A DNA stretch of 64,000 nucleotides, from NCBI GenBank assembly GCA_963805975.1, contig CAWDVR010000002.1:800001-864000 (forward strand). The letters run 5' to 3'. Below, in pieces: positions 16,673 through 43,722 of the stretch. Below the pieces are notes generated by a model that saw nothing but the letters and a program-made list of their open reading frames with translations, searched no databases and was not told the DNA's origin. The position numbers and the translations under genes were made by a program. The number at the start of each line of letters is the position of its first letter. Positions within the stretch are counted from its first letter, which is position 1. This DNA is from an uncultured Acidobacteriota bacterium (GTDB lineage: Bacteria > Acidobacteriota > Thermoanaerobaculia > Multivoradales > SZUA-115).

Positions 16673-17421
16673 ACGACGACTTCCAGGATTTGCTCGCTGC
16701 GCTGCAGGCGACCGAATCGCGATTCCTGATCGTCGGGGCTCACGCTCTCGCGGTCCATGGCGTCCCTCGCGCGACAGGCGATCTCGACGTCTGGGTGCGC
16801 CCTGACTCCGAGAACGCGGCTCGCGTGCTCCGCGCGCTGATCGAGTTCGGGGCGCCGATCGAGTCATTGAAGGTGACGATCGGCGATCTCTCCTCACCAG
16901 GGATGGTGTTGCAGATCGGGCTGCCTCCTCGGCGTATCGACATCTTGACCGAGATCAGCGGTGTCGACTTCGACGAAGCCTGGGCTTCACGCACCGTGGC
17001 TACGGTGGGCGCGCTTCAGATCTCTTTCCTGGGCCGAGAGGCGTTCCTGCGAAACAAGCGAGCCAGCGGGCGTCCGAAGGATTTGCTGGACATCTCCCTA
17101 CTCGACGCCGAGACTCGACGACGAGAGCAGCGACTGACTGCACGAGCGGCTGCGGTGGTCGTGATCCCGGCTGAAAGGCCGGAACGCCGTGCGACAGGCG
17201 TCCCGGCAGGTGCAGGCGAGTCAGCTTACGGCGTAACCTCGATCAGGCGGTCGGTGTTGTACTCGGTGACGAAGATCGAGCCGGACACCGGGTCGAGGAG
17301 CATGCTGGTCGGGCCTTCGAGGTCGTCGACCAGCACGGTCGGCGGGCCGGCGGGCGTGGCGAAGTGCAGGATGCGGCCGTGGCCGCCGCCCAGCAGGTTG
17401 GACGAGTGCTCGAGCACGTAG
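16669..17421 (+). CDS. Nucleotidyltransferase family protein (MNT-like)
   Basis: LNDDFQDLL...FLIVGAHALAVHGVPRATGDLDVWV (G..D-x-D motif)...NKRASGRPKDLLDI. The family-like part ends near 17110; the tail overlapping the next gene may be an indel artefact. Confidence 0.75.
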   Translation: MNDDFQDLLAALQATESRFLIVGAHALAVHGVPRATGDLDVWVRPDSENAARVLRALIEFGAPIESLKVTIGDLSSPGMVLQIGLPPRRIDILTEISGVDFDEAWASRTVATVGALQISFLGREAFLRNKRASGRPKDLLDISLLDAETRRREQRLTARAAAVVVIPAERPERRATGVPAGAGESAYGVTSIRRSVLYSVTKIEPDTGSRSMLVGPSRSSTSTVGGPAGVAKCRMRPWPPPSRLDECSST

Positions 17422-18528
17422 TAGCTGCTGCCGTCCACCTGCACGTCGATGACACAGGACAGACCGGTGATCAGCGGCGTGCTGGTGCCGTCGGTGCTGT
17501 TGTAGGAGTGGATCTCCGAGCGGCCGGGCACGAACGGCGAGCCGGTGAAGAGTGTCACCAGCAGGCCGCCGCCGGCGCCGTGGCGCACCCGGTTCGAGAC
17601 CACCTCGACGGTGGGCCGGCCGGAGCCCGGGAAGTTCGGGTTGGGGAGCTCGGCGAAGATCGTCTTGCTGACCAGCTTGCCGCTGGCGAACGGAGCGCTC
17701 CGGATGCGGTTGGAGCCGGCGTCGGCGATCCAGAGCGTGGTCCGATCCGCCAGGCGGTCGCCCAGGGGGCTGTCGAGGTTGTTCCAGGCGAAGCGCTCGG
17801 CGGAGGCGAGGACCGCCGCCTCGCTGGCACCGTGGTCCAGCTCGTCGAGGTAACGCTGGGCATTGAGGTCACGCAGGTCCCGCACCGTGAGCCCGCCGGT
17901 CAGCGCCAGGCCGAACGGGTTCGCCTTGCGGACGACGGTGCGCGGGTCCTGGATCAGGTCGCGGACGTCGGCCACCAGGCGCACGGTGGCGTGCTCGCCG
18001 GAGGCGTTGCTGAGCTCCACGTTGTAGCCGTCCGCGAGCTGGCCGTGCTGCGCCACGGTGAGCGCCAGCCCCTCGACGACGGCGTCGAGCGGGCGGTCGA
18101 AGGTGGCGACCACCACCGAGCTCATGATCGGCGAGGAGGGCCCGATCGGGTTCGGCGCGTCCTGGCCGGCGGCGGCGCCGCGCTTCACCACGTCACCCTC
18201 GCCGATGAGGATGATCAGCGTACGACCCTTGAGGATGACGTCGTGCGGGCCCGAGGGAGCGCCGGTCGCGGGGATGCCGGCAGGCAGGCCGGAGAGCAGC
18301 GAGCGGACGACACCGGACGAGCGGGCGACCAGCGAGATACGCCCGACGTTGGTGCCGAAGCCGGACTCGGCGACCACCAGGTTGCCGGCGTCCGAGAAGA
18401 CCACGGAGGTCGGCGAGACCACGGGCGCGAGAACATCGTGCTGGGCGCTGGCGATCGGAGCGGCCGACGACAGCCGCTACGAGCGCAGCTCCGAAGATCA
18501 GAAAACGACAGAATCGTGCTGCAGACAT
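17226..18528 (-). CDS. ScyD/ScyE-family beta-propeller secreted protein (frameshift near 18475)
   Basis: Signal peptide MSAARFCRFLIFGAALVAA lies in a different frame from the body. Body has LVVAESG, ANPFGL, IADAGSN, EVVSNRV..LLVTLFTGSPF, IDV..DG..YVLE. Confidence 0.7.
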
Positions 18529-18640
18529 GGAAAACCCTCCTTGCGATTTAATGGTGACGGTCCTCTAGTGCCCGGAGGCGTGGCAAAGGGGACAGCTCGC
18601 GCAAAGAGGTTCGTTCAGGCCGGAGGGCAGCCCCTTCGCC

Positions 18641-34595: not shown

Positions 34596-34913
34596 TCACT
34601 GCATCGCGCCGCAGTAACCACCGTCGTCCAGGGAGCCCCAACAGGCGTCACAACCGTCGAAACAGCAGCCAAGGTCACCGTCGTAGTAGTAGCAAACGCA
34701 CACGTTGCAGTTGCACCCGCCATAGCAGCCACCGGCTGACTGCGTCGCGAAGTTGAACTGCTGCTGCGCGCCAGGAGCGCTGGCGCTCCTGCCCGCACGC
34801 GACATGCTGATCTTCCCCGCCTGGCTCGCGGCATCGACGGCCGCCACGCCCAGGAACACCGCCAATACGAACGCCGACACCACTACCAACCAAGCCCGAT
34901 TACGACGCATCAT
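34596..34913 (-). CDS. Small secreted cysteine-rich protein (10 Cys)
   Basis: SD AAAAGGAG 6 nt upstream of ATG; signal peptide; core CYGGCNCNVCVCYYYDGDLGCCFDGCDACWGSLDDGGYC. Confidence 0.75.
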   Translation of the reverse strand: MMRRNRAWLVVVSAFVLAVFLGVAAVDAASQAGKISMSRAGRSASAPGAQQQFNFATQSAGGCYGGCNCNVCVCYYYDGDLGCCFDGCDACWGSLDDGGYCGAMQ

Positions 34914-34955
34914 TTCGGACTCCTTTTCTGCCTTAACAGGCATTAGGTTGGCAGG

Positions 34956-39182: not shown

Positions 39183-40518
39183 CTACCCCACCGCCCCCTC
39201 CTGGCCGCGGGTCTCGACGCGGCGCAGGTAGGCCAGGAGCTCGGTGAGCATGGCGGCGGAGACAGCTTCGCGCCGCGCCGCCTCCTGAAAGAGGAGCAGT
39301 GCGGCGGTGGCCTCGCGGTGAACGTCCTGCGCCATGAAGATGGGCACCATCTCCTCGGCGAGCCGCTTCACTTCGGCGGTGCGGTCCTGGTGAACGTAGA
39401 GGAGAGCAAGGTCGAGGCCGGCTAGCGGCTGCGTCGAGCCCAACCCTTCGCGCAGGAAGCCTTGCCGAACCTGGGGAAGAGACTTCGGCCGTCGCCCGTC
39501 GCCGAGTTCCGTATGCGACCTTTGCCCAGCAGCCACTGGCGGCGGAGCTGGGTCCAGAGGTCGGCGAACCGGTGTAGAGGGAGCCGTTGCGCTCGAGACG
39601 TTCGCCAGCCTCCAGTAGCCGTCCCGATTCGGCCAAGTACATGGTGAGGTTGTGCTGCGCACAGAGATGGAGCTTGGGATTGACGCCTGGGTCGATGTGA
39701 GACAGCGCTGCCTCGACGGACGGGATCGCGCGAGCAGTCTCGCCGGCGTTGTACAAGACCCTGGCTCTTCTCGATCGAGCACCTTCGCGAGGCGCAGAGT
39801 GGAGCCGGATCCTCTCGTAGATGCCCTTCGCCATGTCGAGGTAGCCCTCGGCATCTACGAAGCGACGCTGGTCCACTCGCAGCGCGACCCGAACAATGTC
39901 CAGCAGCTCACCTTCGACCAGCGGGTCGGCATTACCTTCGCCGTCGAAGATCTCCAAGGCAAAGGCGAGCAGCGAATCCGCACGCTTCAGGTCTCCCGTG
40001 GCTCGGAGCGCATTGGCGCGATGGCCATGGGCCCGCGCCAGGCAGGTCATGGCCCAGGCGCGGCCGAACTCGGAGTGCGAGATGCGGAGCGCCACCTCGA
40101 AGGCGCACTCGGCGAGCTCGTAGGCCTCGAAAGGGTCTGCCGTGACCTTCCGGGCGCACTCGGTGAGGAAGAGGTCCACCAAGGCCGGGGTGCGGAAGCG
40201 GGTGAGAGCGCGGGTGATCTTGGGCCGGCGCTTCTCGGGCGGGAGCTTCATCAGCTCCTGGAGCTCGGCCGCGGCCTCCGCCTCGATCTCGCCCAGGCGC
40301 TCCACCCGGCGGCCGGCGAGCATGAGGGCGTGGTGGACGAGGCCGGTGGACGAGGAGGGTCCGCGGTACCTTCCTCCGACCCCGGCCGAGAGCTCGGCAC
40401 GGCACGCGTCACAGATCTGCAGATGGTGCTCGATCAGGTCTTCGAGGACGGCCCTGGGCGGGTTCTGGCCGCCGAGCAACGCCAGGTACTCCTGGTAGCC
40501 GAGGTGCGAGCGTGCCAT
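39183..40518 (-). CDS. HxxxCxxC zinc finger + TPR protein (several frameshifts between about 39420 and 39810)
   Basis: SD GGGAGG. N-terminal HLQICDAC; TPR helices (ANALRATGDLKRA, HNLTMYLAESGRLLEA). Continuation pieces sit in other frames: STLRLAKVL, RFADLWTQLRRQWLLGK, LDLALLY...EMVPIF..QDVHREATAALLLF. Confidence 0.75.
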
Positions 40519-40605
40519 GGACCTCCCCTGAGACCCGAGCCGAGTTGAGCGGAATCGCCACTTGTGTAGTTCGCGAGAGCCTATTCGCGAGCCGCTGCAA
40601 GATCA

Positions 40606-40639
40606 AGAGGCCGGCACCAAAGTACCGGCGCCGGCCTCT
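40606..40639 (-). terminator. Hairpin between the peptide gene and the TPR gene
   Basis: AGAGGCCGGCGCC-N8-GGTGCCGGCCTCT followed by TGATCTT on the minus strand. Confidence 0.55.
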
Positions 40640-40706
40640 CCACCGCGCAGAAGACATCCGTTCCAGGAATCAAGTTTCGGCCGATCTTCCCCGGCCATTG
40701 GCTCAC

Positions 40707-41030
40707 TCAGCCGTGCGGGTCCATCTCACAGCCTTCGTTGAGCCTGTCACCGGGAGGCGTAGCCGCGCGGCCGTTGGGGTCCATCTCCGGCCCGAAAGTG
40801 AGGAAGTCACCGGGAGGCGTCGCCGCGCTGCCGTTGGGGTCCATGTCCGGCCCATTCTTCGTGGCTGCGGGGAGCAGGCGCGCCTGAACCCACTGCACGA
40901 GATCTCCCAGCAGGCCGGAGATCACTCCTTCCGCGCCGATCCCCATCCCTCGTGGTGCCGCCAGGGCCGGGGAAGCCCCGGCAAGGAGAAGACCTCCGGC
41001 GAGAGCTACGCAAACCATAATGCGACGCAT
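40707..41030 (-). CDS. Secreted repeat-peptide precursor (3x G-x-[DE]-M-D-P-[NH]-G)
   Basis: SD AAAGGAG before ATG 41030; signal peptide ending ALA-A; repeats GPDMDPNG, GPEMDPNG, GCEMDPHG*. Confidence 0.8.
   Translation of the reverse strand: MRRIMVCVALAGGLLLAGASPALAAPRGMGIGAEGVISGLLGDLVQWVQARLLPAATKNGPDMDPNGSAATPPGDFLTFGPEMDPNGRAATPPGDRLNEGCEMDPHG
40710..40853. repeat. 60-bp tandem repeat (about 2.5 copies) inside the precursor gene
   Basis: The lines at 40741 and 40801 align (gtcaccgggaggcgt.gccgcgc.gccgttggggtccat.tccggccc); partial third copy at 40710-40733. Confidence 0.9.
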
Positions 41031-41252
41031 GGCACGCTCCTTTTTTTCGAGGCCGGCCCGCCGAACGGCACCATGCCGGTCGCGACCGCAACCTCTTTGA
41101 CGCAAAGATTGCCGTGCGCAGAGTGTAACCTTCAGACGTAACTTCATTCCTCCAACGGCGTCATAGGCCCGGAAATGTACTTTCTCCAGGGCTGAAGTTG
41201 CTGCCACGGGAGGGCGGGTTCCGCGAGGACGAAAAACTTGGAGTGGCCCGCT

Positions 41253-43722
41253 CTACTCGACTTCGAAGAGCCGCGCCAGGAGGAGCCGCAGGGGGAAGCG
41301 GCCGAGCGAGCCGGCGGCGACCGAGACCTCGTCGAAGCTCTCGACCGGGTCCGCCTCGATCCCTTCGCCCCAGATCGCGACCGGCACCGGGTCGGCCGCG
41401 TGCTGGCCACCTTCGGAGAGCGTGGCGTGGTCGGAGGCCACCGCCACGCGCAGCGGGCCCTTGACGTGGGCGAGCAGCCAGCCGAGGCTTTTGTCCAGTC
41501 TTTCCAGGAACTTGACCTTGAGGTCCGGCCGCTGGTCGTGGGCCGCGATGTCCGCCCCCTTGACGTGGAGCACCACCAGCTCGTGGCTCGCCAGGGCCTT
41601 GGCCGCGAGGCGGAACTTGCCCGGCAGATCGGTGTCGAGGTTGGCGGTCATGTCCGGCGCCGTCATCGCCTCGCCGCCCAGCCAGGAGGAGAGGCCCAGG
41701 AACGTCCGATCGCCGGAGACGGTGGCATGGCGCAGCGGCCGCCCGGCCACCTCCACGGCGGGCAGCGTGCGCACCAGCCCGGCGCCGCGGGTCACCACGG
41801 CGTTGGCCACCGGCCGGCCGGCGGCACGGCGCTTCTTGTTCACCGGGTGGCGGGTGAGGACCCGGCGGGCCTCTTTCTCGAACAGCGCCACCAGGCGGGC
41901 GGTGCGCACCGCGGCGGCATCCCCGGGGTCGGTGGGCCGGGGTGCGAGGGGCGGCCCCGGGGGCGCGCCGTCGCCCGGGTCGCTGCCGAGGATGGCGGGC
42001 GAGAGGCCGGCACCCTGGAAGACGATCGCCAGGCGGTGCTCGGTGGTGGGCTTGACGCGCACGGTGACCCCCTTGGCCTCGCTGCCGGGGAGCTTCAGGA
42101 GGTCGAGGGCGGCGGCGAGCCTGGCGGCCTCCGAGCGGATGCGGCCCGCGCGGCGGTCGGCGAGGCTGCCGTCGCGCGCCAGGGTCGCGAGGTTGCCGCG
42201 CAGGGCGACGTCGCCGGGCTGGAGGTCGATCCCGGTCGCCAGGGCCTCGACCGGGCCGCGCTGCATGGCGGCGGGCGACTGGCCGAAGAGCGCCAGGCTG
42301 CCGGAGGCGGTGTCGGGCACCACGCCGGGGGCCACGGGGTCGGCGAGGCCGGTCTTGCCCTCGCGCGCCAGGCGGTCGAGGTGGGGCAGGCGGGCGGCCT
42401 CGAGCGGCGTGCGCCCGCCGAGCGCCCGCGTCGGGTGGTCGGCCACGCCGTCGATCACCAGCAGCAGGGTGGGCACCCGGCGGGCGCTCCCTTCCTCCGC
42501 GCGGCCGAGCCAGGGCAGCTTCTCCTCGAGCAGGCCGGTCACCAGCCGCAGGGCGCGCGGCAGGGCCGTCTCGCCGTCCGAGGTGTCGAAGAGCGGCATG
42601 TCGTGGGCCTCGGACTGCTCGATCAACTGCGACTGCAGGAGGCGGATAGCGGTGAAGTTCTCGATGTAGCGCCCGGCCGCCCGCGGGGTGGAGCGCGAGC
42701 GGGCTAGGAAGCGCGCGCGGTGGGTCTCCTCGGAGAGCGTGGTCAGGGTGAGCAGCACCTGGTGGACGGCGCCCTCGAGGTCCCGGAACGGCACCAGCCC
42801 CGGCATCAGGTGGACGCCCTCGACCACCACGCTCATGTTCTCGACGATGGCGCGCTCGACCACCGCCCGCACCCCCACGCAGACCCGTGTCGCCTGCTCG
42901 AGAAAAGCCGGTGCGAGGCGGGAAGGGCCGCCGCGCTCGGCCTCCTCGGCGTCCTGGTTGGCGATCAGCTCGAAGCTCGAGGCGTGGAGCGCCGGCAGGA
43001 TGGCGGGCGCGAACAGCATGCGCATCACTTGGCGGATGGTGTCCGTGGCGGTGATGCGGTAGATGCGCAGCAGGGGCGCGATCGACAGCGCCAGGGTCGA
43101 CTTGCCGGTGCCGGTGGCGCCGCCCAGGTAGAGCACCAGGGGCCGCGGCAGGCGGTGGATGCGCCGCACCAGGCGGTAGCGCGCCGCGGCGCCGGCGCCC
43201 TCGTGGCGCTCGACGATCTCGCCCACCCGCCGCGCCACCTCGTCGCTTCGCGAGCCGCTGCACTCCCTCGCGCAGCAACTGACCCTGGAGCTCGCCCACC
43301 AGCCGGTAGGCGCGGTCGAGCTCGACGCCGGCGGCGTGGAGGCTCCGCGCCAGGAGGCCGCGCGAGAAGGGCTGCGGCTCGCCGTGGTAGACGACCTCGA
43401 TCTGCGGCGGCTGCGGCCAGGCGGCGGGCGACAGGCTCGCCAGGCGCTCGGCGCCGACCAGGTTCAGGAGCTGCTCTTCGATCAGATCCTTGAGCTCGGC
43501 GGTCGAGATCGCCCGGCGCTTTCCCAGCTTGCCGCGCACCGCGCGTGCCGTCGCGTAGGCGTCCTCGAAGGGCAGGCCGCGCTGCACCAGGTCGTGCGCC
43601 ACCATGCCGCGCAGAAAGGGGTGGGGATTGCCGGCGCTGTCGCGCACCACGACGCCGCCGCGCCGCACCGCTTCCTCCGCCTTCTTCGCGCCCTCGGCGT
43701 CTCCTTTGCCTTTTTTCGCCAT
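41253..43722 (-). CDS. Fusion: 2x ATP-cone-like + 2-phosphoglycerate kinase + archaeal-type cofactor-independent phosphoglycerate mutase (ApgM); one frameshift near 43247
   Basis: PFLRG and PFSRGLLARSL ATP-cone motifs; GGATGTGKSTLA, TDTIRQVMR, VVEGVHL.P (2-PGK); IDGVAD, TPLEAA, RGPVEA, LRGN, DRRAGRI, HVKGADIAAHD, ASDHAT, HAADPVP (ApgM). Removing one base at 43247-43248 joins the frames (QRLA-SDEVARR). Confidence 0.8.

Follow-up and report, generated by a model that had tools for sequence, protein, structure and literature searches.

A peptide precursor paired with a zinc-finger TPR protein: an order-wide gene module in Acidobacteriota with features of intracellular peptide signalling

The 64,000-nucleotide stretch of contig CAWDVR010000002.1 from an uncultured Acidobacteriota bacterium that was analyzed here (in the following called the window) carries on its minus strand a small gene for a putative secreted precursor with three repeated peptide cores and, downstream of it, a gene for a tetratricopeptide repeat (TPR) protein with an N-terminal zinc-binding motif, named the receptor in the following. 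Our data establish that this gene pair is a real, order-wide and apparently undescribed module. The sequence features make it fairly probable that the module works as an RRNPP-like system in a diderm, in which an exported peptide signal would be recognized by an intracellular TPR receptor and the output would be achieved by anti-sigma release of a sigma factor.

The host genome (5.36 Mb, approximately 70% GC) carries 14 paralogous loci of the receptor family, the intact members of which comprise 382-458 aa. By inspection, a small co-oriented open reading frame (ORF) with a related core was found just upstream of the receptor at 13 of the 14 loci, four of these 13 precursors being loose or without a clear signal peptide. 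A genome-wide scan that was blind to receptor positions returned ten ORFs combining a signal peptide with a core, and because nine of them directly precede a receptor of the TPR family, the pairing goes beyond chance. The sole host paralog without a precursor (L008:4096-5388, minus strand) diverges in its C-terminal part and is possibly frameshifted; a promoter-like motif is situated about 370 nt upstream of it. Outside the host genome, synteny was scored in a discovery set of 137 loci, mostly best-scoring matches and therefore biased to host-like receptors, and in a held-out set of 100 loci from new genomes, three duplicate loci having been removed. A signal-peptide-plus-core ORF was present within about 1 kb upstream at 83/137 discovery loci, a few of these calls being doubtful, and at 58/100 held-out loci, while any core ORF was counted at 89/137 discovery loci. 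The controls yielded 1/137 and 0/100 on the opposite strand, 2/131 downstream and 3/1778 in random windows. The synteny between DPNG-type precursors and the TPR family, on which a first, sequence-only reading had staked its proposal of a peptide-signalling system, is thus borne out in the host genome and order-wide.

A receptor profile matched 18 of 21 relative genomes with 1-45 matches per genome, and within the order 61 of 81 genomes carry the family. In a sample of the phylum searched at E<=1e-40, three of 200 other genomes matched, all from the same order, which leaves none outside of it. The Atlas clusters nearest to the receptor are mostly of Acidobacteriota, and a porin gene is present in the window. 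The search at E<=1e-30 returned 6,105 clusters (50% identity), an upper bound that possibly includes other TPR proteins. No tblastn match was obtained in phage and plasmid collections. In Pfam and NCBIfam, no family covers the tested precursors, and the receptors match only generic TPR families and, weakly, zf-HC2 or ChrR; NCBIfam gave no match above cut-off for precursors or receptors. The main texts of the open-access literature yielded no description of the module. The same receptor family also comprises tandem two-receptor proteins and fusions of XRE-HTH with TPR domains (P0005, P0006, P0007, P0011, P0038). Moreover, a small unclassified protein with a basic N-terminal motif is encoded near six receptor loci (among them L084, L089, L101 and L143); two of these proteins were searched and gave no Pfam match.

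Across the family, the logo of 106 cores reads [K/E/D]-x-G-x-x-Φ-D-P-[N/D/H/S/I/W/Y]-G, and the Gly seven residues before the final Gly is found in 96/106 cores though it was absent from the search pattern. The framework of the motif G-x-x-[MIL]-D-P-[NDH]-G, as initially proposed, holds, but the position after D-P is more variable, so that the core is better written as G-x-x-Φ-D-P-x-G. Two to four tandem cores occur in 21/78 precursors. The last core coincides with the C-terminal end in only 22/78 of them, hence trimming at the C-terminus would usually be needed. Precursor length has a median of 97 aa and is <=100 aa in 83/150 cases, and Cys residues stand on both sides of 15/201 cores. The spacer between signal peptide and cores contains Trp in 110/119 precursors and is more amphipathic than its own shuffles in 102/119. 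Some precursors of only 31-45 aa start at the amphipathic helix and are without a clear signal peptide; those of 31-35 aa (L002:3969-4064, L007:4332-4439, L032, L066, L088) mostly follow the D-to-K rule described below and may use another export route.

To analyze covariation, the positions of the core were compared with the columns of the receptor by mutual information, using 66 non-redundant cognate pairs; receptors more than 70% identical, receptors outside 340-500 aa and two mis-called precursors (three in the later tests) had been left out. A single outlier emerged (z 11.4), in which column 248, located on helix A3, varies with the x of D-P-x-G; the next columns were 244, 207 and 211. K/R at 248 accompanies 19/22 D-type versus 0/23 N-type precursors in the discovery set, and 8/8 versus 2/28 in the held-out set, precursors mixing D and N cores being left out of this test (1 discovery, 9 held-out, 1 own). 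When the last core of every held-out precursor was taken, including the mixed ones, the counts were 8/9 for D and 6/36 for N. In independent pairs on the tree, which was built without the tested helices and has FastTree support only, 13.6/16 changed together and none in the opposite direction (p ~1e-4). Among 75 K/R-variable columns only 248 was significant (p 7e-17; next 0.011), and the sister loci L103/L106, L175/L178 and L024/L026 switch peptide and receptor residue in step; L103, for instance, combines K248 with D-P-D-G, and L106 combines Q248 with D-P-N-G.

Two further codes were the top pairs in the discovery set and reached similar scores in the second set. Code 2 concerns the residue that precedes the core Gly: where it is acidic, Asp/Glu at 215 occurs in 0/28 cases, compared to 77/97 otherwise (9/11 independent pairs agree, 0 opposite, p 0.004). 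In code 3, an aromatic residue at 291 accompanies a Gly placed directly behind the core Gly (8.5/10 independent pairs, p 0.004). The combination of Ser with 291 was marginal in independent pairs (p 0.04, range to 0.29), and acidic x-8 with K/R at 215 failed the same test. In each of the three columns, 248, 215 and 291, the residue belongs to the first (A) helix of a TPR pair. Since the complementarity of charge and size recurs often on the tree, which is hard to explain by linkage alone, direct contact is indicated, and direct recognition of the peptide by the TPR domain is very likely. Both ends of a 9-mer would map to helices A2/A3, hence the bound peptide may be turn-like, a conformation that would fit the minority of cores closed by a Cys pair.

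The model of an intact receptor paralog (C1:196.7k; predicted local distance difference test, pLDDT, 87) displays a TPR superhelix (Pfam TPR_12) with structural matches to LGN/Pins (Z 23.8), RapI (Z 20.8), NprR of the NprR-NprX pair (Z 19.6) and RapH (Z 19.4); the common TPR fold by itself demonstrates no function. The best-conserved polar residues, for example N170, R173, N288, R324 and W327, are mostly found on the A helices. The first helix of each TPR pair lines the concave groove. Peptides of RRNPPA systems sit on the concave TPR surface, according to the available part of PMC9765709. Judged by sequence, the receptors are soluble, with only 2/247 having a hydrophobic 19-mer above 1.8 within the first 150 residues. 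The motif His...HxxxCxxC is present in the window receptor and in 87/137 relatives. A profile of 90 N-termini, the rows of which had been picked by presence of HxxxCxxC, found anti-sigma proteins or domains as its five best PDB matches, including ChrR (2q1z, E 1.8e-6) and DdvA (8rlz, 1.3e-5), with RsiW (0.011) next; 3hug_B was matched at 2e-4. The domain was modelled with moderate confidence as three short helices at residues 8-47 (pLDDT 70; predicted template modelling score, pTM, 0.44). A structure search with the 75-residue N-terminal model, uninformative for such a small helical model, gave no Foldseek match at E<=0.001 and a best Z of 4.4. The motif and the profile matches point to a domain resembling those of zinc-binding anti-sigma (ZAS) factors.

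Two gene families recur within about 1.5-1.9 kb of the 137 discovery loci, sigma factors of the extracytoplasmic function (ECF) type at 32 loci and double XRE-HTH proteins at 16; apart from the antisense frame of the sigma gene, no further neighbour family was seen at more than 8 of these loci. Counted per locus, an ECF sigma gene, full or region-2 only, is situated just upstream at 30/137. In the host genome, four full-length sigma factors of the receptor-linked ECF family stand apart from any receptor. Three of these genes are arranged in tandem (C1:1249509-1251389, minus strand) and one is single (C1:1331279-1331953, minus strand), all without an adjacent anti-sigma gene, which makes them candidate partners in trans. 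ORFs of 86-100 aa with sigma region 2 only were also noted (L001:4022-4321, minus strand; L002:4134-4415, plus strand; C4:146.6k; C5:412.4k), two of them between precursor and receptor, and these might possibly be decoys or split sigma factors. XRE genes are near 16/50 ZAS-less versus 2/87 ZAS-bearing receptors. This link does not hold up as phylogenetically independent (4 pairs, p 1), so that the association of ZAS-less receptors with double XRE proteins appears as a trait of one branch. All four double XRE-HTH genes of the host flank ZAS-less receptors (L006, L009, L011, L012), and near two of these loci lies another TPR-like ORF in shortened form (C3:215.8k, C4:71.4k).

A bipartite motif was found unprompted 5' of the precursors, TGTC(C/A)C...GCAC, in which GTC and GCAC are 19 nt apart. 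This TGTC-N-GCAC motif occurs in 54/139 precursor upstream regions versus 3-9 in shuffles, and a model trained on the discovery loci recognized 20/65 held-out upstream regions compared to 1 in reversed orientation and 1-4 at other spacings. It is commoner at sigma-linked loci (11/15 vs 19/59). Genome-wide, it precedes 28/1091 gene starts versus 9-10 at other spacings. The genes behind it encode signal peptides in 13/28 cases against a background of 253/1091 (23%), and they include what we take, from the sequence, to be an MbtH-like gene and stretches resembling nonribosomal peptide synthetases. In the window itself, a TGTC...GCAC site with score 15.1 lies at ~18562-18597 (minus strand), upstream of the ORF 17226-18422 (minus strand). 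The sequence-only reading had expected the output to run through a sigma factor rather than an HTH protein. The ZAS profile, the linked ECF family and the promoter-like motif speak indirectly for the sigma part, but it would not be the sole output, given the XRE partners and the HTH-TPR fusions.

The module copy in the window comprises the following features, all on the minus strand.
40707..41030 (-): precursor ORF, 107 aa, with signal peptide, Trp-containing spacer and three cores, read from the sequence.
41037..41041 (-): Shine-Dalgarno sequence AGGAG, 6 nt 5' of the precursor ATG, from the sequence.
40959..41030 (-): predicted Sec-type signal peptide, precursor residues 1-24, by a hydropathy/charge heuristic with the A-x-A end set by eye.
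40872..40916 (-): Trp-containing spacer, likely an amphipathic helix, a family-wide feature.
40830..40853 (-): core 1, G-P-D-M-D-P-N-G, from sequence and family logo.
40770..40793 (-): core 2, G-P-E-M-D-P-N-G, from the sequence.
40710..40733 (-): core 3, G-C-E-M-D-P-H-G, directly followed by the stop codon, from the sequence; a misfit under the covariation code.
40605..40640 (-): intergenic stem-loop with a 16-bp stem, without U-tract (fold z -3.84; 0/200 shuffles as stable).
39183..40518 (-): gene of the ZAS-TPR receptor with about 444 codons and frameshifts in the assembly, aligned to a paralog and relatives.
40375..40518 (-): N-terminal His...HxxxCxxC zinc-binding anti-sigma-like domain, from motif and profile matches.
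39775..39815 (-): probable compensated pair of single-base indels, covering or bordering specificity position 248, from alignments.
39480..39575 (-): 2-3 single-base indels with a net frameshift, from frameshift-aware alignment.

The precursor ORF, including its Shine-Dalgarno sequence, the signal-peptide-like N-terminus, the three repeats and the last core at the C-terminus, was found in the sequence as first described. Its N-terminus passes from basic residues to a hydrophobic stretch (hydropathy 2.6) and ends in A-L-A. The three cores are spaced by exactly 60 nt, with two repeat units identical at 46/60 nt, and the relatives P0002, P0003 and P0004 share 75, 43 and 42% identity. The spacer had also been called amphipathic, which for this one alone is true only modestly (moment 0.26) but agrees with the family-wide trend. 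The gap between precursor and receptor is 188 nt and includes the stem-loop; neither a sigma-70 promoter nor a minus-strand intrinsic terminator was called at the locus, the stem being without U-tract. After this hairpin follows the co-oriented gene of the HxxxCxxC/TPR protein, previously given as about 445 aa, which is indeed present but not as one continuous frame, since it contains 3-5 single-base indels in total. It aligns in full length to an intact 439-aa paralog, split over two frames (48% and 66% identity). Frameshift-aware alignment to six relatives places a net one-base shift with 2-3 indels at ~39480-39575, and two of the six alignments include the compensated pair at ~39775-39815. 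By eye, the receptor has Asp at column 215 and His at 287, which suits cores 1 and 2; core 3 violates code 2, and column 248 falls in or beside the damaged stretch.

Contigs of relatives show single-base indel differences at 39573 and 39773-39807, and the neighbouring gene at 41253-43722 (minus strand), a fusion of a kinase-like and a phosphoglycerate-mutase part, switches its frame near 43240; because of both observations an assembly error is likely, and the breaks in the window receptor are probably assembly errors, a real lesion being the alternative. None of the listed contigs of relatives covers the complete locus, and no RNA data set containing it was listed, a negative without bearing on expression. 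Decay of the window copy into a pseudogene, a question that is separate from the mechanism of the family, is rather unlikely: the receptor indels, the lack of an upstream motif and the misfit of the third core would agree with decay, however, the indels are clustered, the reading is conserved to the stop (at the 66% shared with the paralog), and the indel differences in relatives as well as the frame switch in an unrelated neighbour argue against it. Elsewhere in the window, a cysteine-rich mini-protein with a signal-peptide-like start is encoded at 34596-34943 (minus strand), with no Pfam match.

For the family as a whole, we propose that the precursor would be exported via Sec and then cut into short G-x-x-Φ-D-P-x-G peptides; cleavage behind the final Gly and behind the K/E/D that stands two positions ahead of the core Gly would release a peptide of about nine residues. 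This 9-mer might re-enter the cell, possibly via an Opp/Dpp-type ABC transporter, and the host genome encodes an Opp/Dpp-type binding protein and two permeases at C1:213-216k. Inside, it would bind as a turn in the TPR groove of the cytoplasmic receptor encoded next to its precursor, upon which the N-terminal zinc domain would set free an ECF sigma factor whose gene lies at another place in the host genome. The released sigma factor would read the TGTC-N-GCAC promoters before many precursors, thus providing feedback, and before some genes of exported proteins. Each paralogous pair would form a separate channel, and the ZAS-less branch would signal through the double XRE-HTH protein instead. 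Only tentatively, and as something we regard as possible rather than probable, this picture can be extended to a multi-channel peptide language of one order of soil Acidobacteriota with up to dozens of orthogonal pairs per genome, a ZAS+TPR origin independent of RRNPPA, the residue code, a shared ECF regulon of exported proteins and region-2-only modulators.

Several observations weigh against this signalling mechanism. About 40% of the receptor loci have no detected precursor, and 48/137 discovery and 35/100 held-out loci are without any precursor, some being truncated or missed by the pattern. The window receptor is broken as assembled, and the window precursor has no scored promoter motif upstream. 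As the sequence-only reading had already pointed out, no sigma gene stands next to the window locus, and the same was found for the six discovery loci most closely related to it. Genome-wide, the motif occurs before gene starts 27 times in reversed and 28 times in forward orientation, a near-equality for which divergent genes are one possible cause. Regarding the residue code, the D-to-K pairing held in 3/4 strict cases among the pairs of the host itself, where another D-type core pairs with Glu, and the residue classes of codes 2 and 3 were chosen after inspecting the tables. Two other pairings that had been candidates, Pro with 291 (p 0.38) and Φ with H287 (p 0.69), did not pass on independent pairs. 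Finally, the 9-mer would have to cross two membranes.

Among the other explanations, it is unlikely that the peptide binds the TPR domain without carrying a signal from cell to cell, such that an unexported, membrane-held or envelope-clipped precursor would report the state of secretion or of the envelope. The covariation code would indeed show contact and not the previous whereabouts of the peptide, a clear signal peptide is missing from the short precursor forms, anchoring of the precursor in a membrane by its conserved Trp-rich helix is conceivable, and the enrichment of signal peptides behind the motif would suit such a monitor. However, genomes with as many as 45 copies that have diverged and carry varied cores fit private channels, and so do the tandem cores, a feature that the available part of PMC11343458 describes for Rap-Phr pheromones. 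It is quite improbable that the zinc finger has only a structural role or is a leftover, with partners such as XRE-HTH proteins or small DNA-binding proteins taking the place of a sigma factor in the output. Such a role would be in line with the absence of the motif from 50/137 receptors, 10 of which are still situated behind a sigma gene, with the many adjacent sigma ORFs that comprise region 2 only, with the HTH-TPR fusions and with single-sequence matches to Pfam zf-HC2 in only 20/90 N-termini, the one of the window being without match; against it stand the anti-sigma matches of the N-terminal profile, the near absence of XRE genes from ZAS-bearing receptors and the preference of the promoter-like motif for sigma-linked loci. 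Very improbable is a ribosomally synthesized and post-translationally modified or antimicrobial peptide with the TPR protein as chaperone, immunity or recognition partner, because the similarity of leader and repeated cores to such precursors, the Cys-flanked cores and the covariation likewise expected between an immunity protein and its peptide are opposed by the lack of a recurring modifying enzyme within about 1.5-1.9 kb of the 137 loci, a range that would miss enzymes acting from elsewhere and in which only sigma and XRE-HTH genes recur, and by a cytoplasmic TPR partner with a regulatory and without a catalytic domain.

Intracellular peptide-receptor signalling has been described for Gram-positive Bacillota. 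If exported peptides are indeed read by ZAS-TPR receptors, it would extend, at large scale, to a diderm lineage of soils that is abundant and mostly uncultured, and peptide-controlled anti-sigma release would be a new type of output. The putative residue code between core peptide and TPR receptor is new here. Because it predicts a specificity swap between close sister pairs, the module would be testable without culturing the host; close sisters differ in D/K versus N/Q, for which a two-by-two swap is predicted.

Compared to known systems, the module shares several features with RRNPP(A) (Rap-Phr, NprR-NprX, PlcR-PapR, AimR-AimP, Rgg-SHP, PrgX), namely a small signal-peptide propeptide beside a cytoplasmic TPR protein (available part of PMC10075063), a TPR fold similar to that of RapI and NprR, many paralogous pairs, and tandem cores as in some Phr (available part of PMC11343458). 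By default, RRNPP_detector looks for a signal-peptide propeptide of 10-100 aa beside a TPR receptor of 250-500 aa, as stated in the available part of PMC10075063, and on this basis the window pair agrees in four of five respects, its 107-aa precursor exceeding the operational limit of 100 aa by 7 residues. The differences concern the host, which is an acidobacterium here, whereas the available part of PMC9765709 reports RRNPPA from Firmicutes, and the effector, a ZAS-like zinc domain instead of the HTH or Rap three-helix bundle, HTH fusions being found only in members of the receptor family other than that of the window. Moreover, the precursors are longer here, with a Trp-rich spacer and a D-P-x-G core. 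RapF was matched with E 3e-8, a rank below LGN, kinesin light chain and consensus TPRs. Since effector domain and host differ and common descent is only a possibility, the module is not classed as a member of RRNPP(A). The soluble ZAS anti-sigma factors ChrR, RshA and RseA likewise combine a cytoplasmic ZAS protein with a C-terminal sensor, and ChrR is the best profile match, but their signals are oxidative or cytoplasmic, the sensor of ChrR being a cupin (available part of PMC8999054); the available parts of the ECF papers PMC7826278 and PMC8999054 mention soluble ZAS anti-sigmas and no peptide-reading TPR form. DdvA-DdvS of Myxococcus xanthus shares the N-terminal zinc anti-sigma domain joined to TPRs and, as predicted here, an ECF partner, and DdvA is among the five best profile matches. 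However, DdvA spans the membrane and has a periplasmic TPR-CHAT part, about 900 residues long, and no peptide gene is known for it, according to the available part of PMC11506125, whereas the receptor described here is predicted to be soluble (245/247 N-termini without hydrophobic segment), comprises about 440 aa without a CHAT match and is paired with a precursor.

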